From a bacterium (GTDB lineage: Bacteria > Zixibacteria > MSB-5A5 > CAIYYT01), in NCBI GenBank assembly GCA_030631605.1, contig DAOVKV010000001.1:1-60361 (forward strand): a stretch of 60,361 nucleotides of DNA, read 5' to 3'. Shown here in pieces: positions 38,886 through 59,263 of the stretch; position 1 is the first letter of the stretch; each line of letters begins with the position of its first letter. Under the pieces are notes generated by a model, which was not told the origin of the DNA, did not search any database, and was given only the letters and a program-made list of their open reading frames with translations. The translations under genes and the position numbers were made by a program.

Positions 38886-39437
38886 ATGAGAACTCTATTC
38901 ACAGCGACGAAACTGGGATTGGTGGCCATGCTGCTCATTGGCAGCCTGACCATTGCCGCAGACAATGCCGGCAATTCAGGCAAACCAGGCACAGAAACTG
39001 AAGCCACACAACCCGGCAGGTTTGGTGAAACGATCGACTGGCAGGTGATCTCCTCCGGCGGTACTGATGGCAGTTCCACCAACTACCAACTGATGGGAAC
39101 GGCAGGACAAACAGCCGTTGGGACAGGTAGCTCGACCAACTACGGCCTGAATCAGGGGTACTGGCAGGAGTTTGCCGTTCAAGAGTGTGACTGTATTCCG
39201 GGCGATGCCGACGGCAATGCTATGATCAATATTGCCGATGTCGTCTATCTGATCAATTTTATTTTCGGTGGCGGCCCTGGGCCGGTACCATACGCCATCT
39301 GTTCCGGCGATGCCGACTGTAACTGCATGGTTAATATCGCCGATGTTGTGTTCCTGATCAGCTTCATCTTCGGAGGTGGCCCCGCGCCGTGCACCTGCGA
39401 GGAGTGGCTGTCTATTTGCGGCCCACCAATGAGATGA
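38886..39437 (+). CDS. Small secreted protein with a C-terminal dockerin-like module
   Basis: Signal/anchor sequence. Two EF-hand-like dockerin repeats, GDADGNAMINIADVVYLINFIF and GDADCNCMVNIADVVFLISFIF, flanked by Cys. GGAAGGAG Shine-Dalgarno. Confidence 0.7.
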   Translation: MRTLFTATKLGLVAMLLIGSLTIAADNAGNSGKPGTETEATQPGRFGETIDWQVISSGGTDGSSTNYQLMGTAGQTAVGTGSSTNYGLNQGYWQEFAVQECDCIPGDADGNAMINIADVVYLINFIFGGGPGPVPYAICSGDADCNCMVNIADVVFLISFIFGGGPAPCTCEEWLSICGPPMR

Positions 39438-39622: not shown

Positions 39623-40035
39623 ATAGTATCGACATAGTCTCTTTTGTCCGGTTTGTGGAGGGATAATCAGCCACTCCGGAGCCTTATCTTGTTGATTCTC
39701 GTTGGGTCGGTGGAGTGGGGTGAGATTGTCATCCAGGGCGAGTTTCTCCCAACCTTACTCTCCTTACTTTGTTACGGAGCGTATCTGGCAGTTTGTGTTT
39801 GAATATACGTGCGTGCGCCGCCTGGCAGCGGTGAACTGTCAAGAAAAACGACGTCAATCTGTCCGACACACAACGAAAAGACGTTGGAAGATAGTTGATC
39901 CTTAACTAGAAACAAGGAGCTGCTTAAATGGACTTCTTTCAATTCAGAGGGAACTTTTTGAAGATACGACATCTTAGGTTTCAACATCGCAAACAAAGTA
40001 TCACTAGTAACTTGCACCTCAACAAGGAGGAAGCA

Positions 40036-42606
40036 ATGAGAAAAGCAGCTTACATTTCGTTGGCTCTGGCGTTGGTGGCGTTTGCCGGGCCGACGGCAGA
40101 TGCCCTGGCCAAAACCGTGAGTCTTTCAACGACTTCGGGCAATGGTGTTGCCAGCACGGCTATTCCGACAATGGGATTAGCCGCTTATTGGCAGTTTGAT
40201 GAAGGAAGTGGAAGCACGGCTTACGATGAAACGTGTAACAATAACGATGGAACAATCAGAGGAGTAAGCTGGACAAATGGCGTCTCTGGGGGTGCTCTGT
40301 ACTTTCACGGCGGGGGACAATGGCATGACGGTGACCGTGTGCTCGTACCACACTCTTCCAGCCTGGATATCACCGGCGAGTTGACCATCACCGCCTGGAT
40401 AAAAGCAACTGGAACAGACAACTACCTGGCAATTGTTGACAAGTTTCGTGGCGGTGCGACAATTCCTTCCTACGGATTTACGCTATATGTCAGTTCGGGA
40501 AGACTCAGACTTTCAATCTACTCTGGTCCTGACGGACACCACGACGGCTGCGTAGGAACATCTGAACTGAGGGACGATACCTGGCATCATGTCGCTGGCG
40601 TATGGGATGGCAGTCATATTAAGGTCTATGTTGACGGGCAACTAGAAAGGGAAGTGGCATGGGCCTTCCCACCAGCTTCAACAACCAATGATCTTGGGAT
40701 TGGCGAACGACCCTACGGCTATGGGGGATATCTGCCATTCCTCGGAGTTATCGATGGGGTCTGTATCTACAAGAAAGCATTGAGCGATACTGAGATAATG
40801 GGGCAGACTGTCGGTAACACAGTCGATTTGACACCCTATTTCGATTGGGGTGCGATCTCCTCCTACGCCGGCTTAGCTCCGCCGGGGTATATGGGAATTT
40901 GGTCCCCCTCTCACAGCATGAACTTCTTTTTCCCCTCGGATTCCTCCGCTCCAGACCCCGCGGGTAATAGTCCCAGGGCGTGGCTCATCCCGGGAGTTCA
41001 CCTGGCCACTTTCTATGGACCTGACAGTGTGTTCATCCCCAGTAATCCTATGGTTATTGTTCCTGACAGATATTCCAAACCTTGTTCCCTCCTCGTGGAG
41101 ATTCCGCCGGCGAATCTCATAGATCAGGCCACTGATTCGAATGTGATCCAAATATCCACAAGTGAGACTAAAACGATACCCCTCAACGACACGGTGGAAA
41201 CCATGGTCTTTCTGGCAAATTGTGACGGGGCCGCCTATTGTAGTCCTGATCAGCCGTTAGAGGTACGGATCAACTATCAGGATGGTACAGCAGATACTGT
41301 GGTCTTCGACAATATCCATCCAGGGGAACGCTCAACTTATGTTTCCGACCCCAACATCATCTGTTACGGCAATGAAGTTTTCGGCTGTGGTCCCTTTTAT
41401 ACTGACTTTCCCCCTCCCTACTCTACCGACTCGCACTCGGAGTTCTGGCACTGGTATACCCTGTACCCGGATAACACTAAGCTGCTCAACAGCATAGCTT
41501 TCGTAGGGATACAAAGTGAACACCCCTCTGAGATTCACATCTCGGCTCTCTCCTACACTAGACCGCTGCCACTTGAATGGGGCGAATCCATAGACAATTC
41601 GGTCGATTTAACACCCTATTTCGATTGGGGTGCAATCTCCTCCTACGCCGGCTTAGCCCCGCCAGGGTTTATCGGAATTTGGTCCCCCTCTCACAGCAGG
41701 TACTTTTATTTCCCCTCTGATTCCCTGGCTCCAGGCATGCCTCCTAATTATCCCCGAGCCTGGCTCGTCCCGGGAGTTCACCTGGCCACTCTCTATGGAC
41801 CTCATAATGTGCTCATTCCCAGTAATCCCATAGTTGCCGTTCCTGACAGAAACTTTAAACCCTGTTCCCTCTTTGTGGCAGTTCCGCCGGCGAATCTCAT
41901 AGATGAGGCAACTGATGTAAATGTGATCCAAATATCCTCGGGTGAGACTAAAACGATAGCCATCAACGACACTGCGGAAACCATGGTCTTTCTGGCAAAT
42001 TGTGACGGGGCCGGCTATTGTAGTCCTGACCAGCCGTTAGAGGTGCGGATCAACTACAATGATGGTACAGTAGATACTGTGACCTTTGCCAATATCCATC
42101 CGGGGGAACGCGCAAATCCCATTTTCTGGGGGCCTTATACGATCTATTGCAATGAAGTTTTCGGCTGCGGTCCCTTTTATAATGACCTTCCCGTTCCCTA
42201 CTCCACCGACTATCACTCGGAGTTCTGGCATTGGTATGCCCTGTATCCGGATAACACCAAGCCCATCAACAGCATAACCTTCGTAGGGATACAGAGTGGA
42301 TACCCCTCTGAGGTTCACATCTCGGCTCTCTCCTACAATAAGCAGAAATGTGACTGCATACCAGGTGATGCTGACGGCAACGGCATTATTAACATCGCCG
42401 ATGTCGTTTATCTGATCAGCTTCATCTTTCTTCCTGGCAGCCCACCGCCGACGCCGTACGCTACCTGTTCCGGCGATGCTGACTGTAACTGTATGGTTAA
42501 CATCTCTGACGTCGTCTACCTGATCAACTTCATCTTCGTTCCTGGCAGCGCACCGCCTTGCACTTGCCAGCAGTGGCTGGCTGCCTGCGGCCCACCACTA
42601 AGATGA
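40036..42606 (+). CDS. Secreted LamG/concanavalin-like protein with a duplicated ~260-aa domain and a C-terminal dockerin-like module
   Basis: ATG 40036 after AAGGAGGAAG; the track start 39928 is unlikely. Signal peptide MRKAAYISLALALVAFAGP. LamG-type segment (LAAYWQFDEGSGSTAYDE...TITAWIKA...DDTWHHVAGVWDG...VYVDG). Two near-identical domains. Dockerin repeats at the C-terminus. Confidence 0.75.
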   Translation: MRKAAYISLALALVAFAGPTADALAKTVSLSTTSGNGVASTAIPTMGLAAYWQFDEGSGSTAYDETCNNNDGTIRGVSWTNGVSGGALYFHGGGQWHDGDRVLVPHSSSLDITGELTITAWIKATGTDNYLAIVDKFRGGATIPSYGFTLYVSSGRLRLSIYSGPDGHHDGCVGTSELRDDTWHHVAGVWDGSHIKVYVDGQLEREVAWAFPPASTTNDLGIGERPYGYGGYLPFLGVIDGVCIYKKALSDTEIMGQTVGNTVDLTPYFDWGAISSYAGLAPPGYMGIWSPSHSMNFFFPSDSSAPDPAGNSPRAWLIPGVHLATFYGPDSVFIPSNPMVIVPDRYSKPCSLLVEIPPANLIDQATDSNVIQISTSETKTIPLNDTVETMVFLANCDGAAYCSPDQPLEVRINYQDGTADTVVFDNIHPGERSTYVSDPNIICYGNEVFGCGPFYTDFPPPYSTDSHSEFWHWYTLYPDNTKLLNSIAFVGIQSEHPSEIHISALSYTRPLPLEWGESIDNSVDLTPYFDWGAISSYAGLAPPGFIGIWSPSHSRYFYFPSDSLAPGMPPNYPRAWLVPGVHLATLYGPHNVLIPSNPIVAVPDRNFKPCSLFVAVPPANLIDEATDVNVIQISSGETKTIAINDTAETMVFLANCDGAGYCSPDQPLEVRINYNDGTVDTVTFANIHPGERANPIFWGPYTIYCNEVFGCGPFYNDLPVPYSTDYHSEFWHWYALYPDNTKPINSITFVGIQSGYPSEVHISALSYNKQKCDCIPGDADGNGIINIADVVYLISFIFLPGSPPPTPYATCSGDADCNCMVNISDVVYLINFIFVPGSAPPCTCQQWLAACGPPLR
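40822..42336 (+). repeat. Intragenic tandem duplication, period 780 nt (units ~40822-41556 and ~41602-42336)
   Basis: The string GTCGATTT(G/A)ACACCCTATTTCGATTGGGGTGC... recurs exactly 780 nt apart. The units stay alignable to ...CACATCTCGGCTCTCTCCTAC. Confidence 0.85.
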
Positions 42607-42852: not shown

Positions 42853-42915
42853 ATGATTAGAAGCGTTGAAAGAGAGATCGGTGCTTTTAATTCTCGCATT
42901 TCTAAGGAGGGAGGC

Positions 42916-43629
42916 ATGAGAAAAATTCTTGGTAAGTTGTGTTTGGGCATCGTTCTTCTGGCTCTGGTACTCACGCCGGTTGAGCTTTGCGGTCAGTCAT
43001 TCATTTGCGGCGATGTCGATGCGAACAGTATGGTCAATATCGCCGATGTTGTCTATGTAATAACTTATATTTTCGGCGGCGGGCCTTCTCCTGATCCACT
43101 TCTGGCAGGCGATGTCGATTGCGATGGCACGGTGAATATCGCCGATGTGGTGTTCTTGATCAACTACATCTTCGCTGGCGGGCCGGAGCCCTGCGCTGTT
43201 CCGACCGGAATTCTGGTCGACTACGCCGGCTGCAAAACATTCACAAGGGGAAGCGCCGCCGGTAGTACGCCGCCCGATCAGGACTGCATAGAGTATCAGT
43301 ATGATGGAGCAAGAACTCTTCTGCTTAAGCATATAAATGCAGGTTTCAATTGCTGTCCCGTCATTGCGGCTGACATAACCATTGAGGGGAATCTCATAAC
43401 AATACATGAGAGCGAGTCTTTTGATAGCACGGGGCCGTGTTGGTGCCTCTGTCTTTTTGATTTAGACTTGGAAATCAGCAATCTGAGCCCCGGAGAGTAT
43501 ACAATAAGTGTAATCGAGGTATGCACAAATCCAGAGGATGAAATCCTGGAATTCACCGTGAACTTGGTTTCCTCACCTTCAGGCATGTATTGTGTATTCA
43601 GGGATCACTATCCCTGGGGTTTCTATTGA
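42916..43629 (+). CDS. Secreted protein with an N-terminal dockerin-like module and a Cys-rich C-terminal domain
   Basis: ATG 42916 after AAGGAGGGAGG. Signal peptide MRKILGKLCLGIVLLALVLTPVELCG. Dockerin repeats GDVDANSMVNIADVVYVITYIF and GDVDCDGTVNIADVVFLINYIF follow the signal peptide directly. Confidence 0.7.
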   Translation: MRKILGKLCLGIVLLALVLTPVELCGQSFICGDVDANSMVNIADVVYVITYIFGGGPSPDPLLAGDVDCDGTVNIADVVFLINYIFAGGPEPCAVPTGILVDYAGCKTFTRGSAAGSTPPDQDCIEYQYDGARTLLLKHINAGFNCCPVIAADITIEGNLITIHESESFDSTGPCWCLCLFDLDLEISNLSPGEYTISVIEVCTNPEDEILEFTVNLVSSPSGMYCVFRDHYPWGFY

Positions 43630-49095: not shown

Positions 49096-50421
49096 ATGAA
49101 AAAAGAGACGATTACTGACATCATTCTTGACAGTATCGCCGATGGCGTCTTTACCGTCGATCGTGACTGGCATATCACCTCGTTCAACAAAGCTGCCGCG
49201 AAAATCACCGGCATCCCGCGCGAGGAGGCTATTGGTCAACGCTGCTCTGACGTTTTTCGCGCCTCGATCTGCGAATCGGGATGCGCCCTGAGAAAAACAT
49301 TCGCCACCGGGCAACCTGTAGTTAATCTGACCATATTCATAGTTGATCCCGACGGCAGACAGATACCGGTGAGTGTCTCCACCGCTCTGCTTAAGGATGA
49401 AGATGGTAATGTCATCGGTGGCGTCGAAACATTCCGGGATTTGAGCGTCATGGAAGCACTGCGGCGGGAATTGCAGCAAAGCTATTCTTTTGAAGATATA
49501 GTCAGCAAGAGCAAGCAGATGCGGCAGATATTCGCTATTCTGCCCAGTATCGCCGAAAGCGACACGATCGTTCTGATTGAAGGTGAAAGCGGCACCGGCA
49601 AGGAGCTGATTGCCCGCGCGATTCATCATCTCTCGCATCGAGCCGAGAAACCGTTAGTCACTGTCAATTGCGGCGCTCTGCCCGATACCCTGCTGGAGTC
49701 GGAGCTATTCGGCTACAAGGCGGGCGCTTTCACCGATGCCCGCAGTGACAAACCGGGTCGTCTCGCTCTGGCCGAAGGCGGCACCCTTTTCCTCGATGAG
49801 ATCGCTGATGTTTCGCCCGCCCTGCAGGTACGCCTGCTGCGGGTGCTGCAGGAGCACACCTATGAACCGCTGGGGGGAGTTGAACCGATCAAAGCCGATG
49901 TTCGCATTGTCGCCGCCGTGAATCGTAACCTGGAAAAACTGGTCAAGGCAGGGAAGTTCCGCGAAGACCTTTACTACCGCATCAATGTTCTGAAAATAGA
50001 ATTGCCACCCTTGCGGGAAAGAAAAGAAGATATACCACTGTTGATAGAACATTTCATTGAGCGATTCAACCAGACCAAAAGCAAATCGATCACTGATGTT
50101 TCTTCTGATGTGCTGGCAATTCTGATGACCCACAACTATCCGGGGAATGTCCGTGAACTGGAGAATATCATCGAGCATGCATTCGTGCTCTGCCGCGGCA
50201 CGATCATCGAGAGAGGACATCTGCCGCAGAATCTGCTGGCAAAGGAGAAGAAAGCGTCTCCAACGGTGCATTCGGTGGATGATTTCGAGAAACACATGAT
50301 AGAGGACGCGCTCCGCAAAAATGACTGGAATCGAGTGAAAACCGCAGCGGCGCTAGGGATGAACAAATCGACGTTGTGGCGCAAGATGAAAAAGCTCGGC
50401 ATTATAGTTCCGGAGCAATAG
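49096..50421 (+). CDS. Sigma-54-dependent transcriptional activator with an N-terminal PAS domain
   Basis: PAS (ILDSIADGVFTVDRDWHITSFNKAAAKITG). AAA+ (VLIEGESGTGKELIA, GAFTDA, ESELFGY). C-terminal HTH (AALGMNKSTLWRKMKK). Confidence 0.9.
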   Translation: MKKETITDIILDSIADGVFTVDRDWHITSFNKAAAKITGIPREEAIGQRCSDVFRASICESGCALRKTFATGQPVVNLTIFIVDPDGRQIPVSVSTALLKDEDGNVIGGVETFRDLSVMEALRRELQQSYSFEDIVSKSKQMRQIFAILPSIAESDTIVLIEGESGTGKELIARAIHHLSHRAEKPLVTVNCGALPDTLLESELFGYKAGAFTDARSDKPGRLALAEGGTLFLDEIADVSPALQVRLLRVLQEHTYEPLGGVEPIKADVRIVAAVNRNLEKLVKAGKFREDLYYRINVLKIELPPLRERKEDIPLLIEHFIERFNQTKSKSITDVSSDVLAILMTHNYPGNVRELENIIEHAFVLCRGTIIERGHLPQNLLAKEKKASPTVHSVDDFEKHMIEDALRKNDWNRVKTAAALGMNKSTLWRKMKKLGIIVPEQ

Positions 50422-50424
50422 AGG

Positions 50425-50438
50425 TTGCATATATGCAA
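50425..50438. promoter_or_regulatory. Candidate activator binding site 1, palindrome TTGCATATATGCAA
   Basis: Perfect 14-bp TTGC-N6-GCAA palindrome immediately after the activator gene stop. Confidence 0.55.
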
Positions 50439-50457
50439 CCAAATATTCAACGATAAG

Positions 50458-50471
50458 TTGCGTATCTGCAA
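50458..50471. promoter_or_regulatory. Candidate activator binding site 2, TTGCGTATCTGCAA
   Basis: Same TTGC-N6-GCAA frame. Its centre is 33 bp (three helical turns) from site 1 and ~100 bp upstream of the -24 element. Confidence 0.55.
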
Positions 50472-50566
50472 TCCCATGATTGCTAACACGAACGATGTAA
50501 AAACATACCGTCGCATAACCACTTAAATAACAATACATTATGTGCCGCATGATTGTGGCGTGGATT

Positions 50567-50582
50567 TGGCATGAATTCTGCT
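50567..50582 (+). promoter_or_regulatory. Sigma-54 promoter, TGGCAT-N5-CTGCT (-24 GG / -12 GC)
   Basis: GG and GC are separated by exactly 10 nt, as in TGGCAC-N5-TTGC. It lies downstream of the two palindromes and next to a sigma-54 activator gene. Confidence 0.6.
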
Positions 50583-50597
50583 CATATTCCAAGCGAG

Positions 50598-51038
50598 ATG
50601 AAGATCGGAATACCAGTTTGGGATAATCGGGTTTCACCCCTGCTTGACACAGCCGGTCAGCTCCTGATGGTCAACGTTGAGCAAGAGAAGAGACTTCCTC
50701 GTGAGGTGGTCAATATCCCCTTGCAGCCTCCCTGGCAGAGAGCGCGGTATATCCACGATGCCGGCGTTGGTACTCTGATTTGCGGGGCGGTTTCGCGTCC
50801 CCTGGAGTCGATGTTGATTGCTGCGGGAATAACAGTAATACCCTGGATTCGAGGAGAAATCGAGGAGATTATCGCCGCCTATTCCGCCGGCACTCTCGAT
50901 AAGAGTAGTTATCAACTTCCGGGTTGTTGTCGGCGTCGGGGTCGCCATCGGAGCGGGAGACGCCATCAGCCCAGGGGTGGTTTTGGACAATACAGACAAT
51001 TCTTAAGGAGGAGAGATGAGAATTGCGATTTCTTCTAA
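50598..51038 (+). CDS. NifX/NifB-like (Nitro_FeMo-Co family) protein with an Arg-rich tail
   Basis: Start moved to ATG 50598 (MKIGIPVWDNRVSPLLDTAGQLLMV...GVGTLICGAVS...AGITVIP). The tail reads PGCCRRRGRHRSGRRHQPRGG. Confidence 0.65.
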   Translation: MKIGIPVWDNRVSPLLDTAGQLLMVNVEQEKRLPREVVNIPLQPPWQRARYIHDAGVGTLICGAVSRPLESMLIAAGITVIPWIRGEIEEIIAAYSAGTLDKSSYQLPGCCRRRGRHRSGRRHQPRGGFGQYRQFLRRRDENCDFF

Positions 51039-51378
51039 AGGTAAAGAGCTGAGCAGCGAGATTGATCAGCGTTTCGGCAGAACTCGATACCTGATTGTTT
51101 ACGACACCAGCGACGACAACTGGCAGGCGATCGACAACAGCGCCGCCGAAATGGCGCATGGTGCGGGGGTGCAAGCCGCTCAAACTGTCGTCAACCAGAA
51201 AGTTGATGTTGTGGTTTCCAGTAACTTCGGCCCGAAGGCTTTTCTAATTCTGCAGGCGGCCAAGATTAAGGTGGCGCAACTGGCGCAGGGGACGGTCTCT
51301 GAGGCGATTGATCTGGCTCGGAACAACCAGCTTACTTTCATCGACGGTGCCAGTGTGCCACAAGGCGGTCCCCAGTGA
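51016..51378 (+). CDS. NifX/NifB-like (Nitro_FeMo-Co family) protein
   Basis: MRIAISSKGKELSSEIDQRFGRTRYLIVYD...HGAGVQAAQTVVNQKVDVVVSSNFGPKAF is the classic small NifX-like pattern. Confidence 0.8.
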   Translation: MRIAISSKGKELSSEIDQRFGRTRYLIVYDTSDDNWQAIDNSAAEMAHGAGVQAAQTVVNQKVDVVVSSNFGPKAFLILQAAKIKVAQLAQGTVSEAIDLARNNQLTFIDGASVPQGGPQ

Positions 51379-51547
51379 ATATGAAGGACACAGCGCGGGG
51401 CTTATTGAAAAAGCCATTGCGGCGTGCCCTCGGGTGCAGCTCGCTGCGCCCCTACAAATTGAATTTAACGGTAGGTTGAAACCCCTGCGGTTTCGACTTC
51501 CGAGGATTGGTTTGAATCGTTAACCTTATTTAAGAGGAGTAGAGAAA

Positions 51548-51943
51548 ATGCCAAGAGGAGACAGAACAGGACCGGCTGGCGCCGGGCCGATGACGGGTCG
51601 CGGTGCCGGCTACTGCGCCGGTTATGGCGTACCCGGCTACATGAACCCGGGATTTGGCGGTTATGGCCGTGGTGGTTTTGGCGGCGGGTTCGGCTATGGA
51701 GGCGGACGAGGCCATCGCTGGGGGTATCATTTGACTGGTATGCCCGGTTGGGCACGGGGAGCACCCGGCTACGGGGTCGGCTTTGGCGGCTCTGGCTACC
51801 CTGGTTACTTCGAGCCCGCGCCGGAAGACGAACTCAAGATTCTGAAGAACGAAGCAAGGCTGGCTCAAAAGGCGCTTGATGATATCAACAAGCGAATTGC
51901 TGAGATACAGCCCAAGAATGCGAAGACGCAGAAAGGAGAATAA
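51548..51943 (+). CDS. DUF5320-like protein (RG/GY-rich N-terminal half, coiled-coil C-terminus)
   Basis: MPRGDRTGPAGAGPMTGRGAGYCAGY...GFGGGFGYGGGRGHR...PEDELKILKNEARLAQKALDDINKRIAEIQ. AAGAGGAG Shine-Dalgarno. Confidence 0.7.
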   Translation: MPRGDRTGPAGAGPMTGRGAGYCAGYGVPGYMNPGFGGYGRGGFGGGFGYGGGRGHRWGYHLTGMPGWARGAPGYGVGFGGSGYPGYFEPAPEDELKILKNEARLAQKALDDINKRIAEIQPKNAKTQKGE

Positions 51944-51945
51944 TC

Positions 51946-52248
51946 ATGGGACGTGGAGGTAGAGGTTCCGGCGGCGGTAGTGGTGGTCAGGGCGGTGGAG
52001 GTGGACGTGGCCAGGGTGGCGGCCAAGGACAGGGTGGCGGCAAAAAAGGCGGTGGTGATCAGGGAGGTGGTCAAGGGCAGGGTCGTGGCGGTGGTCGTGG
52101 GCGCTTTCAAGATCAGGGTGGCAGCGGCGCTGGTATCGGTGGAGAATGTGTTTGCCCCAGTTGCGGGGCAACAGCGCCGCACCAAATGGGCGCACCCTGC
52201 AATAGTATACAGTGCCCTAAGTGTGGCCAGACGATGACAAGAAAATGA
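51946..52248 (+). CDS. Gly-rich protein with a C-terminal zinc ribbon (100 aa)
   Basis: ~75 aa of GGxG/RGG low complexity, then CVCPSCG...CPKCG. It starts 3 nt after the previous stop. Alternative-frame ORFs here are shadows of the GC-rich repeat. Confidence 0.5.
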   Translation: MGRGGRGSGGGSGGQGGGGGRGQGGGQGQGGGKKGGGDQGGGQGQGRGGGRGRFQDQGGSGAGIGGECVCPSCGATAPHQMGAPCNSIQCPKCGQTMTRK

Positions 52249-52267
52249 TGGAAGCAACGGCGCTACA

Positions 52268-53140
52268 ATGCAGATAGCTATCGCCAGCGGCAAAGGCGGC
52301 ACCGGCAAGACGACGGTCGCGACCAACCTGGCCGTCGCCCTGGCCGATGCCGGCGAGAAAGTCGCCTATCTTGACTGCGATGTTGAGGAACCTAATGGTC
52401 ATATCTTCATCAAGCCTGAGATCGACCGCAGCGTCAAAATCGAGTTGCCTTTCCCGCAGGTAGACCTGGAGAAATGCACTTTCTGCGGTGAATGTGCTGA
52501 GGCCTGCAAGTTTGGGGCGATGGCGGTAGTTCCGGATAACGTTTTGATCTTTTCGGAACTCTGTCATAGTTGTGGCGCCTGCTTTCACCTCTGTCCGGAG
52601 AAGGCGATCAATGAAATCCCCCGAACGATAGGCGCGGTCCGGCAGGGTTCCGGTATGGGAGTCGATTTCGCCGAAGGGCGGCTTCAGGTCGGCGAGCCGC
52701 TGGCGCCACCTGTTGTTGCGGCTGTCAAACGGTCGATCACACCTGACATAGTGCGTATCCTCGACGCCTCACCGGGTACCACCTGCCCCACGATTGAAGC
52801 AGTCAAGGGGAGTGATTTCGTTCTGCTTGTAACCGAACCGACTCCCTTCGGCTTGAACGACCTGAAACTGGCGGTGGCGATGCTGCAAAAAATGGCATTG
52901 CCGTTTGCGGTAATTATCAACCGCGCTGACATCGGCGATGACCGAGTCGAAGAATACTGCCTGGCGGCAGGCATCGATGTACTTTTGAGGATTCCCCACG
53001 ATAGGAAAATCGCGGAAGTTTATTCTCGAGGTGAGATGATTCTAAACAGTCATCCTGATTATCGGAAGAAGATGCTTTCACTTTATCAGGACATACTGAA
53101 CAGGTTGTCATATGCAAGAACTGGTAATCCTCAGCGGTAA
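52268..53140 (+). CDS. MinD/ParA-superfamily P-loop ATPase with an inserted 4Fe-4S ferredoxin domain (paralogue 1)
   Basis: IAIASGKGGTGKTTVATNLA is a deviant Walker A. It has CTFCGECAEACKF and CHSCGACFHLCPE ferredoxin motifs. COG1149-like, from memory. Confidence 0.85.
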   Translation: MQIAIASGKGGTGKTTVATNLAVALADAGEKVAYLDCDVEEPNGHIFIKPEIDRSVKIELPFPQVDLEKCTFCGECAEACKFGAMAVVPDNVLIFSELCHSCGACFHLCPEKAINEIPRTIGAVRQGSGMGVDFAEGRLQVGEPLAPPVVAAVKRSITPDIVRILDASPGTTCPTIEAVKGSDFVLLVTEPTPFGLNDLKLAVAMLQKMALPFAVIINRADIGDDRVEEYCLAAGIDVLLRIPHDRKIAEVYSRGEMILNSHPDYRKKMLSLYQDILNRLSYARTGNPQR

Positions 53141-54044
53141 GGGCGGCACTGGCAAAACCAGCCTGGTCGGTTCCCTGGCGGTACTGGCGGAAAAGAAAGT
53201 GTTGGTTGATTGCGATGTCGACGCCGCCAACCTCTATCTAATTACCAAGCCGCAAATCGTGAGGAAGGAGAGTTTCTCCGGCGGGATCAAGGCGCGAATC
53301 GATCAGCAAAAATGCAACTCCTGCGGCGTCTGTCTTGATTACTGCCGTTTCGAGGCGATTACCGTTTCCGACGACGGCGTCAACGGCAGCAATCCGGTAT
53401 TCGATATTGATCAGTTGGCCTGCGAGGGTTGTGATCTCTGTTCTCACTTCTGTCCCGAAGATGCGATAATAACAGCGCCAGTAGAAACAGGTGAATGGTA
53501 CATATCAGATACTCCTTACGGACCGATGGTGCATGGGCGTCTTGGTATCGCTGAGGGGAACTCCGGCAAACTGGTCTCGTTGCTGCGGGACCAGGCGCGA
53601 GACCTCGCCGCCGAACGGGAGCTTAACCTGGCGATAATCGACGGGCCGCCGGGGATCGGCTGTCCGGCGATTGCTACCCTCACCGGTGCCAGTTATGTCC
53701 TGATTGTCACCGAACCGTCCCTGTCCGCTTATCATGATCTGAAGCGGGTGGCTGATCTCGCCCGCCATTTCCGGCTGCCGGTAGGAATTTGCCTGAACAA
53801 ATCTGATATAAACGCCAGGATAGCTGGTGAGATTGAGACCTACGCTCGCAATAATAATATGGACTTTCTCGGCGCTTTACCCTATGATGCATTGTTTACC
53901 AGAGCGCAGGTTGCGGGAAAGACGCTGATTGAATATACTTCAAACCAGACTACTGATCGTATCAGATCATTGTGGGTCAGACTGCAAGAGAAGCTTGAAT
54001 TGGGAAATAAGGACTCGCTTCCAGCCGACCAGAAAAAAAGATGA
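53112..54044 (+). CDS. MinD/ParA-superfamily P-loop ATPase with an inserted 4Fe-4S ferredoxin domain (paralogue 2)
   Basis: VILSGKGGTGKTSLVGSLA. CNSCGVCLDYCRF and CEGCDLCSHFCPE. 29-nt overlap with paralogue 1. Confidence 0.85.
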   Translation: MQELVILSGKGGTGKTSLVGSLAVLAEKKVLVDCDVDAANLYLITKPQIVRKESFSGGIKARIDQQKCNSCGVCLDYCRFEAITVSDDGVNGSNPVFDIDQLACEGCDLCSHFCPEDAIITAPVETGEWYISDTPYGPMVHGRLGIAEGNSGKLVSLLRDQARDLAAERELNLAIIDGPPGIGCPAIATLTGASYVLIVTEPSLSAYHDLKRVADLARHFRLPVGICLNKSDINARIAGEIETYARNNNMDFLGALPYDALFTRAQVAGKTLIEYTSNQTTDRIRSLWVRLQEKLELGNKDSLPADQKKR

Positions 54045-54070
54045 CTCTTCAACATAAGGAGCCAACAGAC

Positions 54071-54466
54071 ATGAAAATCGCGGTGCCGACATCAGATGGT
54101 CTCTTGTCTCCCCATTTCGGGCGCTGCCAGGAGTTTACTATTCTGGAAGTCGAGTCTTCAGGGGGGGAAATTGTCGCTGTGGAACATGCGAATCCACCGG
54201 CGCATCAGCCGGGGGCGTTTCCGCAATGGCTCAGTCAATTGGGCGTTAGCCTTGTAATCGCCGGTGGTATGGGAGTGCGGGCCATCCAGATGTTTGAAGC
54301 AAGCGGCATCAAGGTTATCTCTGGGGCGGCGGCGTTACCTCCTGAGGAGTTAGCCAAAGCCTATCTGGAAGGCGAGATGTCCAGCGAGGAGAACCCCTGC
54401 GATCATGACAGCAGCCAGCCGTGCCAGGGGCATGAAGGCAGTCCCCGCAGGCGAGGATGCCGGTAA
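54071..54466 (+). CDS. NifX/NifB-like (Nitro_FeMo-Co family) protein
   Basis: Start moved to ATG 54071 (MKIAVPTSDGLLSPHFGRCQEFTILEV...GVSLVIAGGMGVRAIQMF) after AAGGAG. Confidence 0.8.
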   Translation: MKIAVPTSDGLLSPHFGRCQEFTILEVESSGGEIVAVEHANPPAHQPGAFPQWLSQLGVSLVIAGGMGVRAIQMFEASGIKVISGAAALPPEELAKAYLEGEMSSEENPCDHDSSQPCQGHEGSPRRRGCR

Positions 54467-54819
54467 ATGGCAACGCCAAGCGGACCAAGCCACTTGACCT
54501 GTAGTACTTATAACCATGACTGTGACAAAAAAAGGTGAGCGGCGTCCTAATCAGGTAGGTGCTCCAGAAAACTGGATTAACGCGCTTAGGCTGTCCTGAC
54601 ACCCCGAGCTAAAAACCTGAACTCGGTACTTGGACCCAGGCTTACCGCTCACCAACAGATATTCGCCAGGCCGAGTGTACCCCAACCTGCTGTTACATGA
54701 GCATATCACCAGTTAATATATGGCAGTTCTATCCCCCTGTCAATGAGAGAATCGGAAACACAGAAATCAAATCACGACGGTCTTTGACCTGCCTCATATT
54801 CAGGCTTTTGATATAGCTT

Positions 54820-55698
54820 CTACTCGATCGCCTGCCTGATTGCCCGGATGTGCTCCGGCGTCGTACCACAACACCCGCCGATGATCGAGACACCAGCGTC
54901 AATCAAATCTTTCGCCTTCCCGGCCATGTATTCCGGTGTCTCCGGGTAAACCAGTACACCATCTTCTATTTCAGGCAGTCCCGCATTGGATTGGATAAGC
55001 AAAGGCAGCTTCGTATGCTTCCTGAAGCGACGGGCGATCTTAATCATATTATTGATACCGTTACCGCAGTTGGAACCGATGATATCCGCGCCGATGGTAG
55101 CCAGGCGCGCGGCGGCGGTTTCGATATCGACACCCATGACGGTAAAGAAACCTTTCGGTGTGGCGTCAAAGGTCATCGTCGCCATCACGGGAATGGTGGC
55201 AGACACCGCGCGGGTCGCCTCAATCGCCAGGCTTGCCTCAGTCAGGTCGGTCATGGTTTCAACGCAAATGATATCAACACCGGCGTCGATCAGCGCGCTG
55301 ACCTGCCGTTTGAAGCTTTCGAACATGGCTTCCGGTTTAGTATCACCATAGGGTTTTAATATCTTACCGGAAGGCCCGCAAGAGGCGGAGACATAAGCCT
55401 GCTGACCAACGGCTTGCCGGACAGCCTTGACCGCCTTGCGGTTGATCTCTTCAGTTTGATCCGCCAGCGAATAATCAGCCAGCCGCAGCGGTGAAGCGCC
55501 AAACGTATTGGTCTGGATGATCTCGGCGCCGGCGTCAAAATACGCCTGAGCAATTTCTGTGAGCAGGGCGGGTTTGGTGAGATTAAGGGCTTCCGGACAG
55601 TCGCCCGCTTTCAAGCCACGACTGAAGAGCATCGTCCCCATCGCGCCGTCAGCGACCAGAATCTCGCCTTGCCTTACCCTATCAAGTATACTTCTCAT
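54820..55698 (-). CDS. Homocysteine S-methyltransferase-domain protein (MetH Hcy-binding module as a stand-alone protein)
   Basis: 292-aa ORF. ILVADGAMGTMLF, IIQTNTFGA, Zn-ligand Cys in GSNCGNG and a Cys pair in IGGCCGTTPEHI. Confidence 0.8.
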   Translation of the reverse strand: MRSILDRVRQGEILVADGAMGTMLFSRGLKAGDCPEALNLTKPALLTEIAQAYFDAGAEIIQTNTFGASPLRLADYSLADQTEEINRKAVKAVRQAVGQQAYVSASCGPSGKILKPYGDTKPEAMFESFKRQVSALIDAGVDIICVETMTDLTEASLAIEATRAVSATIPVMATMTFDATPKGFFTVMGVDIETAAARLATIGADIIGSNCGNGINNMIKIARRFRKHTKLPLLIQSNAGLPEIEDGVLVYPETPEYMAGKAKDLIDAGVSIIGGCCGTTPEHIRAIRQAIE

Positions 55699-55699
55699 C

Positions 55700-56338
55700 T
55701 CATTCCCTGCCGATGAGAGCTTTGACCCGCTCTACCGCGCTGACGCCGTCAAAAGCGTAGGCATCGGCACCGATCTGATCGGCAAATTTTTGGGTGACTG
55801 GCGCACCACCGATGATGACTTTGATCTTGCTTAACAATCGTCGCTCACGGAGCAGGTCGATAACCTGTTTCATCACCGGCATCGTTGTGGTCAACAGCGC
55901 TGACAGGCCGATGGCCCCGGCTTCTTCCTTCTCAGCAGCGGACACGAACTGCTCCGGGGTAACATCACTGCCCAGATCGATGACCTCAAACCCCGCGCCT
56001 TTGAGCATGATTGCCACCAGGTTCTTGCCGATATCATGCAGGTCGCCCTGTACCGACCCGATCACCACCTTGCCGCTGGTCGGTATATTCTCCCTGATCA
56101 TCAGCGGTTTGAGCAGGTCCATACCGGCATACATCGCCCGTGCCGCCAGAAGCACCTGCGGCAGGAAGATCTCATGCGCCTTGAACCGTTCACCGATCAC
56201 CGCCATACCGCCGATCAAACCGTCATCAAGTATCTGTTTCGGCGGCAGCTTCTTCTCTATTGCCCGGCGGGTAAGCTCGGCCACATGTGTATCGTTACCC
56301 TTTTGCAAACTCGCGGAAATCTGTTCTAATATACCCAC
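55700..56338 (-). CDS. Corrinoid (B12-binding) protein
   Basis: 212-aa ORF. Cap helices plus a Rossmann domain with VQGDLHDIGKNLV (DxHxxG), LSALLTTT and IIGGAP. Confidence 0.85.
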   Translation of the reverse strand: MGILEQISASLQKGNDTHVAELTRRAIEKKLPPKQILDDGLIGGMAVIGERFKAHEIFLPQVLLAARAMYAGMDLLKPLMIRENIPTSGKVVIGSVQGDLHDIGKNLVAIMLKGAGFEVIDLGSDVTPEQFVSAAEKEEAGAIGLSALLTTTMPVMKQVIDLLRERRLLSKIKVIIGGAPVTQKFADQIGADAYAFDGVSAVERVKALIGRE

Positions 56339-56363
56339 TACGAATTTTCTCCAACAGGCAAAC

Positions 56364-57077
56364 TTAAATACTCAATCTTGTCGGCATCCGCGTCTGGCAG
56401 GAATGATCCTGACAGGCAGCACAAAATGGATAGGAGTCGGCAATAACAAACAGACCAGGCGCGCCTGCCAGCAGCACTCCGGAGACAGATTTCAACGGCT
56501 CCATCAGGAAACTTGATCGCAAGGTGATACCGATCTCCTCAGGTTGCAGGTAAGCAAACAGGCGCTTCTGCCCACTGATATGCCAGCCGCAGTAGCCGGG
56601 GCTGAAACGTGATGCTGCCATCGTTGTCATAGTCTGTTGTCTTTTCACGAGATTTTCAAGGAAGCGATACTCAATATCAGCGGCGGCGCGGTCGGCAGCG
56701 GCTGATGCAACTGCATCAAGCAGCGAACCGAGCGCAAACTCTCTCGTTTGGAAAAGCTCGCTAATTTTCGTCTCGACATCGTGACCGATGGTCACGGCAA
56801 AAAGAGCAAGACACTCTGCTTGGGGATATATCTCAGCAACAGGCGTGACCGGTTCATTGCGGCCTTCGCCTGCATAGATTTTCTCAAACTCAAGGGTGGA
56901 TATTTCGGCCATTATCGCCACCGGTCGGGCTAATTGCTCAAATAGAGTGAAAGCATCGTCAAGGAGACCAATGATTCTATCATCAGGTTTTTCCGCCGCA
57001 GGTATGCCCTGGGCTTGTAGTACTTCTGCTTCTTCTGGAAGAACACCTCGTACAGGCAGTGAAACAATCTTCTTCAT
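56364..57077 (-). CDS. Methionine-synthase activation-domain-like protein (Met_synt_B12 family)
   Basis: 237-aa ORF. RFSPGYCGWHISGQKRLFAYLQPEEIGITLRSSFLMEPLKSVSGV matches the PGY..W...Q..LF...IG..L.....M.P.KSVS pattern of the MetH reactivation domain. C-terminal CAACQDHSC. Confidence 0.65.
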   Translation of the reverse strand: MKKIVSLPVRGVLPEEAEVLQAQGIPAAEKPDDRIIGLLDDAFTLFEQLARPVAIMAEISTLEFEKIYAGEGRNEPVTPVAEIYPQAECLALFAVTIGHDVETKISELFQTREFALGSLLDAVASAAADRAAADIEYRFLENLVKRQQTMTTMAASRFSPGYCGWHISGQKRLFAYLQPEEIGITLRSSFLMEPLKSVSGVLLAGAPGLFVIADSYPFCAACQDHSCQTRMPTRLSI

Positions 57078-58534
57078 GTTGTCTGATCGGGCAAGTGTTC
57101 CATGCCGTGACGGTGCGCTTCCCTCTGCATCAAGCGCGTCAGCTCTTTCTTACAATCATCAGGCAGACGGGAGGGTCGGTATTCCGTTAGCAGTTTGCTT
57201 ACTTCCTGAGCGGCACGCTGCCGCAAGGTAAAGCCGCCCTCTTCCTGCCAGCGTGACTTGTTGGCACGGTTGATGACCGGGCCAGGGAAATAGTGTTCAT
57301 CGCGGAGGTATCGTTGCGAGTGTTCCGAAATCAGCAGATGTTTCTCCTTAAGCAGTTCCTCGAAGCGAGGCAACGCCGGAAAATCCTCTTTCGGTTCGAT
57401 CCCCTTGAGCATACGCAGGGTCATGCCGCAGATCTCGTTGTCGACAACCAGCTTTTCCAGGCTCTGGCAACTTTCAAAGTCGATCATCCCGGGCCCGGAG
57501 ATGTTGTTAATGCCTGCTAACGCCGCCAGGGTCGCTCCCATCGAGGTCTCCAAACCGGCTTGCGCATCGAGCGCATTGGCGTCACTCAAACCGATGTAAG
57601 CCTGAGTCGGCAGACCGAGATGTTTGCCGATCTCGTTGTGGGCGCAGTCGATCATCATCGTCTCCACCGCACCCATCGGGGTGGTTTCATAGCGAACGTC
57701 GAAGACAGCAGGCGAACCGCCGTAAAGAGCGGGCGCGCCAGGATTGGTCAACTGGCTGATGACAATGCCGGAAAGCGTTTCCGCCGTGTGCTGTACCAGT
57801 GTCCCCACCAGTGTCACCGGCGCCATGAAACCGGAAAGAGGCATTGAGATATACTCGACCGGAATCCCGTAGCGGGCGCAGTCAACCAGGTTTTGCGAAG
57901 TGACATCACTCCACTTTAAGGGTGCCGTCGGACAGACCGAAAAGATGGTCAGGGGTCTTTCTTTTAATCCCGATTCACTGCCGCGCACCGCCAGTTGCAG
58001 TTCTTTCATAATCGTGAATGCCTCAATGGTGAAAGCGCCGGTCACCACCGGTTTCTCGCAGTGCAGCAGACTGAGGTAGAGACGGTAACTGTCGGAGACC
58101 TGTGCGTTCACGTCGGTCGGGATCAGGGCGGTGCTCTGGGAAGCGATATGGTTAAGCCTGCTTACCAGTTTGGTATACTTGATATAGTCGGCGCTGGTCG
58201 GAGGACGCATTTCCCCTGTCTCATTGTCCAGGATTGTTATCGCCGCGGAACCGGGAGTGAAGTGAACATTGTCGCCGCTGAAATCATGAGTCTCATTGCC
58301 CAGGACATCATAGAGTTTGAATGAGTGACATGCGGTTTTCAAGGCGTTGTCGATGATTCCATCTGTCAAGATGGCATGATGTTTCTCGAGATCAATAGTC
58401 GCGCCATGATCAGCCAGCATTTTCAGGATATCCTGGTTATGGATATCCAGTCCCGGACGGCAGAGGAGTATTCGCGCCTCTCTGACGATCTGCTCAATGA
58501 GATCATCACTTAAGAACTTAAGCTTTGGTCGCAC
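57074..58534 (-). CDS. MttB-superfamily (trimethylamine methyltransferase family) protein, non-pyrrolysine type
   Basis: 486-aa uninterrupted ORF with no in-frame TAG. GTG start after GGAGG. N-terminal FLSDDLIEQIVREARILLCRPGLDIHNQDILKMLADHGA and overall length are typical of the MttB family. ATGA-type 4-nt overlap with the next gene. Confidence 0.8.
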   Translation of the reverse strand: MRPKLKFLSDDLIEQIVREARILLCRPGLDIHNQDILKMLADHGATIDLEKHHAILTDGIIDNALKTACHSFKLYDVLGNETHDFSGDNVHFTPGSAAITILDNETGEMRPPTSADYIKYTKLVSRLNHIASQSTALIPTDVNAQVSDSYRLYLSLLHCEKPVVTGAFTIEAFTIMKELQLAVRGSESGLKERPLTIFSVCPTAPLKWSDVTSQNLVDCARYGIPVEYISMPLSGFMAPVTLVGTLVQHTAETLSGIVISQLTNPGAPALYGGSPAVFDVRYETTPMGAVETMMIDCAHNEIGKHLGLPTQAYIGLSDANALDAQAGLETSMGATLAALAGINNISGPGMIDFESCQSLEKLVVDNEICGMTLRMLKGIEPKEDFPALPRFEELLKEKHLLISEHSQRYLRDEHYFPGPVINRANKSRWQEEGGFTLRQRAAQEVSKLLTEYRPSRLPDDCKKELTRLMQREAHRHGMEHLPDQTT

Positions 58535-58652
58535 TACGCTATTCCTAACCTCCTACCGTAAACAGTATACCTTTGCATAATAAGGGAAGACCCCCTCGGA
58601 ATGTCAAGCGGGCAAACCGTTTGAGATTTCGCCTCGAGCCACCCCCGTCGGC

Positions 58653-58681
58653 TTGACAGCTTGTAATCCAATCGATATATT
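58653..58681 (+). promoter_or_regulatory. Sigma-70-type promoter for pyrE, TTGACA-N17-TATATT
   Basis: Hexamers read directly from the sequence, followed by GGGAGG and GTG 58709. Confidence 0.5.
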
Positions 58682-58708
58682 GGCTGCACTAACACGTGGG
58701 AGGTTTTA

Positions 58709-59263
58709 GTGTCGGAACAATCCAGGCAACTACGCAACCAACTCCTGGAGTTGGTCAATAAACACGCCGTGATTCATGGCGATTTCGTGCTGACTTCCGG
58801 GCAGAAATCAACCTACTATATCGACGGCAAGCTGCTCTCACTGATGCCGGACGGTCTGCTTTGCCTGGCACAGGTTATCCTGGAGATGATAGCAGAGGAT
58901 GAAGTCGACGCAGTCGGCGGCCTCACCCTGGGCGCTGACCCGATCATCGGCGCGGTGGTAGCGCTCTCGCAGGAGAGCGGTCGGCCGCTCAAGGGTTTGA
59001 TCGTCCGCAAGGAACGTTCCGGTCACGGCCGCACCAAGCGTATCGAGGGACCGTTACAGCAAGGCATGAAGGTTGTGGTAATCGAGGATGTCGTCACTAC
59101 CGGCTCGTCATCGATCACCGCCGGTGAGGCCCTCGAAGAAGCGGGCAGCGAAATCGTCAAGGTAGTGGCGATGGTGGATCGCCTGGCCGGCGGTCAGGAA
59201 AACTTCAAGGCCAAAGGCTACCGTTTTGAACCGATCTTCACGCTTGACGATTTGAATATCTGA
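58709..59263 (+). CDS. pyrE: Orotate phosphoribosyltransferase
   Basis: GDFVLTSGQKSTYYIDGK and the PRPP loop VVVIEDVVTTGSS. Confidence 0.9.
   Translation: MSEQSRQLRNQLLELVNKHAVIHGDFVLTSGQKSTYYIDGKLLSLMPDGLLCLAQVILEMIAEDEVDAVGGLTLGADPIIGAVVALSQESGRPLKGLIVRKERSGHGRTKRIEGPLQQGMKVVVIEDVVTTGSSSITAGEALEEAGSEIVKVVAMVDRLAGGQENFKAKGYRFEPIFTLDDLNI

Follow-up and report, generated by a model that had tools for sequence, protein, structure and literature searches.

What does a cobalamin (B12)-dependent methionine synthase become when its modules are encoded as separate polypeptides and an MttB-family methyltransferase takes the place of the pterin-binding module? This question is raised by four genes on the minus strand, at 54820-58534, of a 60,361-nt stretch of a Zixibacteria genome (contig DAOVKV010000001.1; hereafter the window, to the whole of which all coordinates refer). 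A first-pass annotation, made from the sequence alone, had proposed that these genes form a cassette for direct, folate-independent methionine synthesis from a methylated amine. Following up this proposal with profile searches, structure comparisons, and an analysis of related loci in other genomes, we conclude that the cassette is probably a modular B12-dependent methionine synthase without a pterin-binding module.

The first gene of the cassette (57074..58534, minus strand, as are the three that follow) encodes a 486-aa non-pyrrolysine MttB-superfamily protein, the presumed methyl-donor:Co(I)-corrinoid methyltransferase, which matches the Pfam MTTB profile (PF06253, 1.9e-75) from position 29 to position 495 of 500; its open reading frame (ORF) is uninterrupted, and hence there is no in-frame TAG in mttB. 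It is followed by genes for a 237-aa stand-alone reactivation protein of the MetH type, similar to TM0269 (56364..57077; PF02965, 7.2e-12; motifs PGYCGW, IGITL, and MEPLKSVSG), a 212-aa corrinoid (cobalamin-binding) protein composed of cap and Rossmann domains (55700..56338; PF02607, 3e-22, and PF02310, 1.3e-30; motifs DLHDIG, SALLTTT, and GGAP), and a 292-aa stand-alone zinc homocysteine (Hcy)-binding methyltransferase domain (54820..55698; PF02574, 2.2e-73), the presumed methylcorrinoid:homocysteine methyltransferase. The four genes are translationally coupled: mttB ends and the reactivation gene begins within a shared ATGA, a 4-nt overlap, and a single nucleotide lies between the TGA of the corrinoid gene and the ATG of the Hcy-domain gene, with a 25-nt gap between the reactivation and corrinoid genes. 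Gene order, junctions, protein families, and motifs all agree with the first-pass annotation. The cassette proteins score far under the cut-off of the NCBIfam metH equivalog because each of them spans one module only.

The absence of a pterin module, on which the earlier proposal turned, was borne out by the absence of any match to Pterin_bind (PF00809) in the four cassette proteins, the annotated neighbors on the contig, and ten further metabolic-looking genes of the window, the scan not extending gene by gene over the whole window. The ten genes include those for LarC, two PTA_PTB proteins, an enoyl-CoA hydratase, a DUF401 protein, an M20 peptidase, and an NAD synthase, and neither among these nor among the cassette neighbors was a methylenetetrahydrofolate reductase (MTHFR), a betaine or amine transporter, RamA, or a pterin methyltransferase detected.

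At the acceptor end, the best matches in the PDB are the Hcy domain of Thermotoga maritima MetH (1Q7M, 178 bits) and Thermus MetH (170 bits), compared with 75 bits for betaine-homocysteine methyltransferase (BHMT) and 64 bits for a homocysteine methyltransferase (HMT) of the S-methylmethionine (SMM) type (5dml). Of 73 homologues, 72 have the zinc ligands in GSNCG and GGCCG, and the conservation of DGAxGT and xETM is similar (72-73). Judged by its sequence, the domain is MetH-like, not of the BHMT or SMM type, and it groups with the MetH Hcy domain, as the first-pass annotation had it, rather than with pterin-binding or other non-Hcy methyltransferases. It matches PF02574 only and lacks a match to the MetE-type PF01717, the criterion for the methionine synthase families MesA-MesD. 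The corrinoid protein carries the His-on motif GDLHDIGKN, with DxHxxG in 80 of 80 homologues; its NCBIfam scores are 214 bits for MtgC_2 and 201.7 bits for pyl_corrinoid, both under the cut-off, and 145 bits for the B12 region of MetH.

The reactivation protein combines a familiar fold with an unfamiliar set of cysteines. A profile of 41 homologues matches TM0269 (1J6R), the stand-alone protein that reactivates T. maritima MetH, over residues 5-200 at 2.8e-10 and the activation domain of Escherichia coli MetH at 6e-4, and the AlphaFold2 model (pLDDT 92.9) has 1J6R as its best predicted structural counterpart in Foldseek (E 1.8e-12, TM 0.83), followed by 18 MetH reactivation-domain entries. By this predicted fold and by the RxxxGY motif, which the window protein possesses in the form RFSPGY, the protein is of the TM0269 type and is predicted to bind S-adenosylmethionine (SAM). 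In the window protein, the motif continues as RFSPGY-C163-GWH, and the C-terminus contains C219-x2-C222-x4-C227; both SPGYCGW and CxxCxxxxC are found in 82 of 83 homologues, whereas TM0269 ('RISPGYGD') and E. coli MetH ('RPAPGYPAC') lack the four cysteines. A 200-aa relative encoded beside an MttB protein of a sister clade (locus L091, discussed below) has neither the SPGYCGW cysteine nor CxxCxxxxC. Given this co-occurrence, the four cysteines probably form one metal site (Cys4), which may be a Zn or Fe-S site beside the SAM-binding tyrosine.

To what extent the cassette is a unit can be judged from its recurrence. A genome scan with one genome per species yielded at least 590 genomes with a relative of the reactivation protein (a family of 2864 relatives at 90% clustering), and the best 80 loci were studied. 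In 68 of these, all four genes share one strand and the order found in the window. A contig end or a run of Ns truncates about 9 further loci, and only L043, L068, and L084 are genuinely partial. These 80 loci belong to TA06, WOR-3, Zixibacteria, Ignavibacteria/Bacteroidota, Stahlbacteria, Fischerbacteria, Planctomycetota/Phycisphaerae, Acidobacteriota (Aminicenantes, Thermoanaerobaculia, and Vicinamibacterales), Gemmatimonadota, Marinimicrobia, Fidelibacterota, Cloacimonadota, Armatimonadota, and Elusimicrobiota, and thus to more than 12 phyla. The order MTTB, Met_synt_B12, B12-binding, S-methyl_trans is identical in another Zixibacteria metagenome-assembled genome (MAG), in a complete WOR-3 chromosome, and in unrelated metagenome contigs, and the flanks of these loci are wholly different from one another; the same order in 68 of 80 species genomes with unrelated flanks shows that the cassette is not a chance adjacency. 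A start of the xTGA type overlaps the mttB stop in 55 of 76 loci.

All-against-all clustering of the 529 ORFs neighboring the 80 loci exposed no meaningfully recurrent family, the recurring ones being generic (ABC transporters at 11 loci, Ser/Thr kinases at 8, and class I SAM methyltransferases at 5), and these ORFs include no adjacent pterin methyltransferase, betaine transporter, or RamA. Thus, a methylcorrinoid:tetrahydrofolate methyltransferase, which the first-pass annotation had named, together with an Hcy-domain gene in a separate transcription unit, as what would undo its reading, is found beside the operon neither in the window nor at the loci of other phyla.

Individual loci depart from the common arrangement. 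In two Gemmatimonadota MAGs, there are only the reactivation and Hcy-domain genes (L043) or a Na:Ala symporter gene followed by the reactivation, corrinoid, and Hcy-domain genes (L068); L084 has the reactivation gene alone, and in L020, a Zixibacteria MAG, 1.8 kb is inserted between the reactivation and corrinoid genes. Replacement of MttB by a pterin module at the three partial loci was considered and ruled out, the proteins encoded there being the Na:Ala symporter, a PD40 protein, and a PAP2 protein.

We next consider what the MttB-like protein takes its methyl group from. The protein scores 352.5 bits against TIGR02369, the model of pyrrolysine (Pyl)-type MttB, under the cut-off of 525, and its closest PDB matches are MtgB (9yce/2qne, 172 bits) and MttB (7xcl, 165 bits), with ~28% identity both to Desulfitobacterium hafniense MtgB and to Methanosarcina barkeri MttB. 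Across phyla, the cassette clade is sharply conserved (80 homologues; median identity 70.6%, minimum 62%; 185 of 486 columns at least 95% conserved), including a pocket signature, S96/M231/Q311/L316/S346/E354, that is retained in 78-80 of the 80 homologues. The pocket differs from both reference enzymes. The two aromatic residues of MtgB that hold glycine betaine by cation-pi contacts, Y97 and F356, are replaced by Ser96 (78/80) and Glu354 (80/80), and the carboxylate-binding R312 and H348 by Gln311 (80/80) and Ser346 (79/80); with respect to MttB, the substrate-activating Pyl334 is replaced by Leu316 (79/80) and the catalytic Tyr364 and Gly110 by Ser346 and Ser96, respectively.

The six characterized substrates of the MttB superfamily comprise trimethylamine (TMA), whose use depends on pyrrolysine, and quaternary amines that bear an acidic group, and the arginine that binds this group (R312 in D. 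hafniense MtgB) is conserved in MtcB, MtpB, MthB, and MtyB. The cassette clade fits none of the six substrate types. With neither pyrrolysine nor the Arg, His, and aromatic residues of the betaine enzymes, a carboxy-betaine donor is unlikely, and the invariant pocket, as aligned, argues against TMA via pyrrolysine as well as against carboxy- and phospho-betaines. It would be compatible with a cationic amine without an acidic group, such as protonated tri- or dimethylamine or a compound similar to choline or tetramethylammonium: an invariant Glu gained and the Arg/His pair lost both favor such a substrate, while leaving room for an endogenous donor. Identity of ~71% together with invariant Q311 and E354 is consistent with a single conserved substrate.

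A wider search of 1.84 billion representatives revealed a graded superfamily (5342 representatives), in which the S-M-Q-L-S-E signature sets the cassette clade apart from a larger sister group with His311 (more than 7786 proteins, 65-68% identical among themselves). At three loci of this sister clade (L089, L090, and L091), corrinoid-MttB pairs are accompanied by a RACo/RamA-type activase (in a Clostridiales MAG) or by the 200-aa Met_synt_B12-like protein without the cysteines, with no Hcy domain, no acceptor methyltransferase nearby, and no informative transporter. The link to an Hcy domain therefore appears specific to the Gln311 clade. We also considered reading the donor off from the sister clade and rejected this approach, given the lack of an acceptor or an informative transporter there.

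Within the mttB coding sequence, at 57490..57589 on the minus strand, there is a match to PYLIS_3 (RF02510; 39.8 bits against a gathering score of 38) that starts exactly at codon 316 (Leu, TTG), which is aligned with Pyl334 of M. barkeri MttB. The codon is not UAG, and the same in-frame match was obtained in 9 of 20 other loci at 38-48 bits (L012, L034, L038, L048, L052, L055, L064, L067, and L070). Because position 316 has no UAG, the match most likely has no function of its own and merely reflects homology between coding sequences; such matches in non-pyrrolysine mttB genes are a likely source of false PYLIS annotations. The TTG at this position was also considered as a lineage-wide trace of an amber codon, an idea that was rejected since the Leu codons vary (CTC 28, CTG 24, TTG 15).

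Taken together, the four proteins could form a complete methyl transfer cycle, in which the homocysteine and repair steps would follow the established chemistry of MetH modules and the donor step that of the MttB superfamily. The direction of flow that we infer begins with the MttB-like TIM barrel, which would bind the methyl donor and pass the methyl group to the Co(I) of the separate corrinoid protein, yielding CH3-Co(III). The methylated corrinoid protein would then dock on the Hcy domain, where the zinc-activated homocysteine thiolate would take up the methyl group, producing methionine and restoring Co(I). Co(II) arising from occasional oxidation would be returned to CH3-Co(III) by the TM0269-like protein with SAM and an electron donor, and the Cys4 site might be a metal or Fe-S center serving as the electron entry point in this repair. 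The context looks anabolic rather than catabolic, given that no transporter or regulator is linked to the cassette, the flanks vary, and the repair protein is of the MetH rather than the RamA type.

A bolder version of this reading is possible, and we advance it tentatively, with more doubt than conviction. On this version, the cassette would be a fifth, MetH-derived family of folate-independent methionine synthases, and the sole one in some candidate phyla; its MttB would use a donor class new to the superfamily, whether an endogenous metabolite or a tertiary or secondary methylamine in protonated form, for which Glu354/Gln311 would take over activation from pyrrolysine; and the reactivation subunit would have its own Cys4 metal or Fe-S center, making repair independent of flavodoxin docking.

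Several observations weigh against the assignment of the cassette as a folate-independent methionine synthase. The pocket signature is found in no characterized MttB member, and the clade lacks pyrrolysine, Tyr364/Gly110, R312, H348, Y97, and F356, so that, while the architecture and the acceptor support the first-pass prediction of folate-independent methionine synthesis from a methylated amine, the methylated amine itself is not established as the donor. No SAM, cobalamin, or T-box riboswitch was detected with Rfam at the gathering score in the whole window or at E <= 1 in 54300-58800, nor, at the gathering score, in 20 cassette loci of other phyla, the only matches being those to PYLIS_3 within mttB; the regulatory signature expected of a methionine gene is thus missing. 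About half of the 83 homologues of the reactivation protein have A, S, P, G, or L in place of the Arg of the RxxxGY motif, which renders SAM-dependent repair insecure for the family as a whole. All 80 loci, and every listed homologue that bears a source name (most bear none), come from MAGs or single-amplified genomes, with no cultured host among them, and we found no biochemical or genetic study of any cassette member in the published literature. On the other side, Williams et al. 2022 (Environ Microbiol 24:2576, PMC9324843) arrived independently at the same hypothesis: they described a cluster with the same four components from Ca. Electryoneota and 'diverse bacteria', and their text proposes corrinoid-dependent methionine synthesis from 'an unknown methyl donor' and places the MttB homologues in an uncharacterized clade nearer MttB than MtgB. 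The genetic evidence from Ruegeria described below, that one corrinoid protein can serve an MttB-family enzyme as well as an Hcy-domain protein, likewise speaks for the assignment. According to the text of Williams et al., the Electryoneota MAGs with the cluster also encode full-length MetH, so that the cassette is not always the sole synthase. Some Zixibacteria, Spirochaetota, and Desulfobacterota MAGs, in contrast, have been reported to have MttB without MetH, a point in favor of the assignment; the cassette is therefore in some cases a second synthase and in others may be the sole one.

How the corrinoid protein is used in other bacteria suggests a different arrangement, which we consider unlikely but take seriously. 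In Ruegeria, genetic analysis has shown that a glycine-betaine methyltransferase of the MttB family and methionine synthesis with the Hcy-domain protein MtgE share one corrinoid protein, MtgC, that MtgC and MtgD are both required to make methionine and to demethylate glycine betaine, and that the genes involved are often dispersed (Mausz et al. 2025, PMC12478193); in Phaeobacter, the subunits of the split MetH are likewise unlinked. By analogy with such a network, as in Ruegeria and Sinorhizobium, an unlinked pterin methyltransferase would also serve the cassette corrinoid protein, the methyl group from MttB would pass mainly to tetrahydrofolate, methionine would normally be made from CH3-tetrahydrofolate, and the cassette would be the co-located part of a bidirectional system. 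The window covers 60 kb of the genome, and an unlinked pterin methyltransferase may lie elsewhere, a further point against the assignment we prefer. However, the cassette is self-contained in 68 of 80 genomes, with no pterin gene among the 529 neighboring ORFs; marine repair relies on RamA and DUF1638, not on a PF02965 protein; and in marine bacteria mtgE usually does not adjoin mtgBCD (PMC12478193), whereas the Hcy-domain gene, with its 1-nt gap, is the most tightly coupled member of the cassette. A second arrangement, to which we assign a small chance, would also retain methionine as the product and give up folate independence: the MttB-like barrel would bind an endogenous carrier, such as 5-methyl-tetrahydrofolate, itself a tertiary amine, in place of the pterin barrel, making the cassette a housekeeping analogue of MetH. 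The two modules have the TIM-barrel fold and the presentation of a methyl group to a corrinoid in common, sequences are very highly conserved across phyla with one cassette per locus, the lack of a linked transporter or regulator and the varying flanks are typical of biosynthetic genes, repair is MetH-type rather than RamA-type, and there are the MAGs reported to have MttB without MetH; indeed, the housekeeping-like context, which also lacks a riboswitch, leaves room for an endogenous donor. Yet no MttB-superfamily member is known to bind folate, the six known substrates being small methylamines, there is no detectable sequence similarity to Pterin_bind, and the cassette would be redundant in the Electryoneota MAGs that, by the account of Williams et al., possess MetH as well, if the donor were the same.

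The two other alternatives concern the ends of the pathway. That the cassette is a corrinoid-dependent betaine:homocysteine methyltransferase, with a donor similar to those of MtgB, MtpB, MtcB, MtyB, or MthB, would agree with the use of quaternary amines by all characterized non-pyrrolysine MttB members, with MtgB and MtgC as the best PDB and NCBIfam matches of the donor and corrinoid proteins, and with the betaine-dependent methionine synthesis known in Sinorhizobium; the pocket substitutions described above (R312 to Gln in 80 of 80, H348 and Y97 to Ser, F356 to Glu), an identity to MtgB that is no higher than that to Pyl-MttB, and the lack of a linked betaine transporter at the 80 loci make it very improbable. 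Finally, the Hcy-domain protein could act alone as a SAM:homocysteine or SMM:homocysteine methyltransferase, of the MmuM or YitJ N-terminal type, and be adjacent to the other genes through shared regulation of the methionine cycle. Its best NCBIfam match is in fact the N-terminal half of the bifunctional Hcy S-methyltransferase/MTHFR model PRK08645 (296 bits, under the cut-off), but the much stronger match to the MetH Hcy domain than to the SMM-type enzyme (178 against 64 bits), the 1-nt coupling, and the presence of the genes together in 68 of 80 genomes suggest that the proteins are physical partners, and we regard independent action as scarcely credible. Thus, a modular methionine synthase with an MttB-like donor module is the reading that we retain.

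The window around the cassette contains genes of other kinds. Upstream, the intergenic region 58535..58708 is shared with a divergent phosphoribosyltransferase (pyrE-like) gene, which lies there along with a ketol-acid reductoisomerase gene; it contains an AGGAGG ribosome-binding site before the GTG start of mttB, no recognizable riboswitch, and a sigma-70-like match on the plus strand that points to pyrE. Downstream and convergent with the cassette, at 49096-54466 on the plus strand, are a sigma-54 activator (PAS and AAA domains), three Nitro_FeMo-Co-domain proteins, a DUF5320 protein, and two CbiA/ParA-type ATPases with ferredoxin inserts (the CbiA-Fer4 proteins), a cluster of a kind that is recurrent and poorly understood in anaerobes; a 100-aa Gly/Arg-rich ORF at 51946-52248, ending in CxxC...CxxC, has no Pfam match. 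In the 353-nt gap past the Hcy-domain gene, at 54590-54743 on the minus strand, there is a sigma-70-like promoter match (11/12, TTGACA-17-TATATT), after which a stretch of about 120 nt with a U-rich run has a folding energy of -44 kcal/mol (z = -2.0); this stretch has no Rfam match and no ORF of at least 60 aa in that orientation, and may represent a small RNA, or nothing.

Farther away, three plus-strand ORFs (38886-39437, 39928-42606, and 42853-43629) appear, from their translations alone, to share a duplicated dockerin-like module, CDCIPGDADGN..INIADVVYLI.FIFGGGP; two of the three start with a signal-peptide-like N-terminus, and the 892-aa protein seems to have a large internal duplication as well. 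On the minus strand, a LarC-type nickel-insertion protein is encoded at 860-2038 (PF01969, 1.3e-128), and the translation of 4542-5300 resembles LarB, with an 836-aa DNA-methylase-like ORF between the two genes; together, the LarC and LarB-like genes suggest a nickel-pincer cofactor pathway.

Should the assignment hold, methionine, and with it SAM, would be produced through a B12-dependent route invisible to standard pathway tools in hundreds of uncultured species from at least 12 phyla, including WOR-3, Zixibacteria, Ignavibacteria, Phycisphaerae, Aminicenantes, Gemmatimonadota, Cloacimonadota, and Marinimicrobia. Which of these lineages are predicted to be methionine auxotrophs, and how much B12 they are predicted to need, would change accordingly. 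Methylamines in the environment would enter the SAM cycle directly, and a function would be assigned to a large and sharply conserved MttB-superfamily clade, the role of the non-pyrrolysine members having been called an open question in the field. In Zixibacteria, 'MttB as sole corrinoid methyltransferase' has been proposed elsewhere as a TMA-driven methyl source for mercury methylation; this MttB may belong to the methionine-synthase cassette.

In relation to known systems, the idea of the cluster is already published, and the window is a further member of a cluster type on record. All components named in the text of Williams et al. are present here, namely, a non-pyrrolysine MttB homologue, an Hcy methyltransferase, a corrinoid protein, and a SAM-binding activation protein; their account is a short bioinformatic note within a MAG paper, and the window holds a Zixibacteria instance of the cluster. 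What we add, relative to the main text of that paper, are the distribution figures, the active-site signature, and the four-cysteine feature.

The experimentally studied systems each share a part of the design. T. maritima MetH (TM0268) and TM0269 resemble the cassette in the Hcy domain, in the sequence and fold of the reactivation protein, and in the His-on DxHxxG; compared with MetH (EC 2.1.1.13), the cassette has an MttB barrel instead of the pterin-binding domain, each module is a polypeptide of its own, the corrinoid protein is nearer the methylamine-type corrinoid proteins than the MetH B12 domain, and the reactivation protein has four extra conserved cysteines. In the quaternary-amine systems (Desulfitobacterium MtgB/MtgC/MtgA and Eubacterium limosum MtpB, MtcB, MtyB, and MthB), an MttB-superfamily barrel likewise methylates a cognate Co(I) corrinoid protein, but these systems are catabolic, deliver the methyl group to tetrahydrofolate via a pterin methyltransferase, rely on RamA-type ATP-dependent activation, and act on acidic substrates bound by an Arg that is Gln in the cassette. 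MesA-MesD, the four folate-independent methionine synthase families described by Price et al. 2021 (PMC7857596), all MetE-like, methylate homocysteine from a methyl-corrinoid protein without methyl-folate, as is proposed for the cassette, which differs in its MetH-type PF02574 acceptor with a dedicated corrinoid protein, loader, and repair protein. MtgBCDE and split MetH (Ruegeria pomeroyi, Phaeobacter inhibens, and Sinorhizobium meliloti; PMC12478193, PMC5764234) have separate MttB-family, corrinoid, and Hcy-domain subunits around one cobalamin carrier that connects the demethylation of methylamines with the making of methionine, a likeness that holds at the family level only: they are systems of aerobes, with the pterin subunit MtgD, repair by RamA-like and DUF1638 proteins, and an mtgE that is usually unlinked, whereas the cassette, found mostly in anaerobic candidate phyla, is one operon with PF02965 repair and no adjacent MtgD, RamA, or DUF1638 in the window or at the other loci. 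Relative to the characterized systems, the cassette is thus a variant of the modular corrinoid methyltransferase/split-MetH theme in which the donor module has been swapped.

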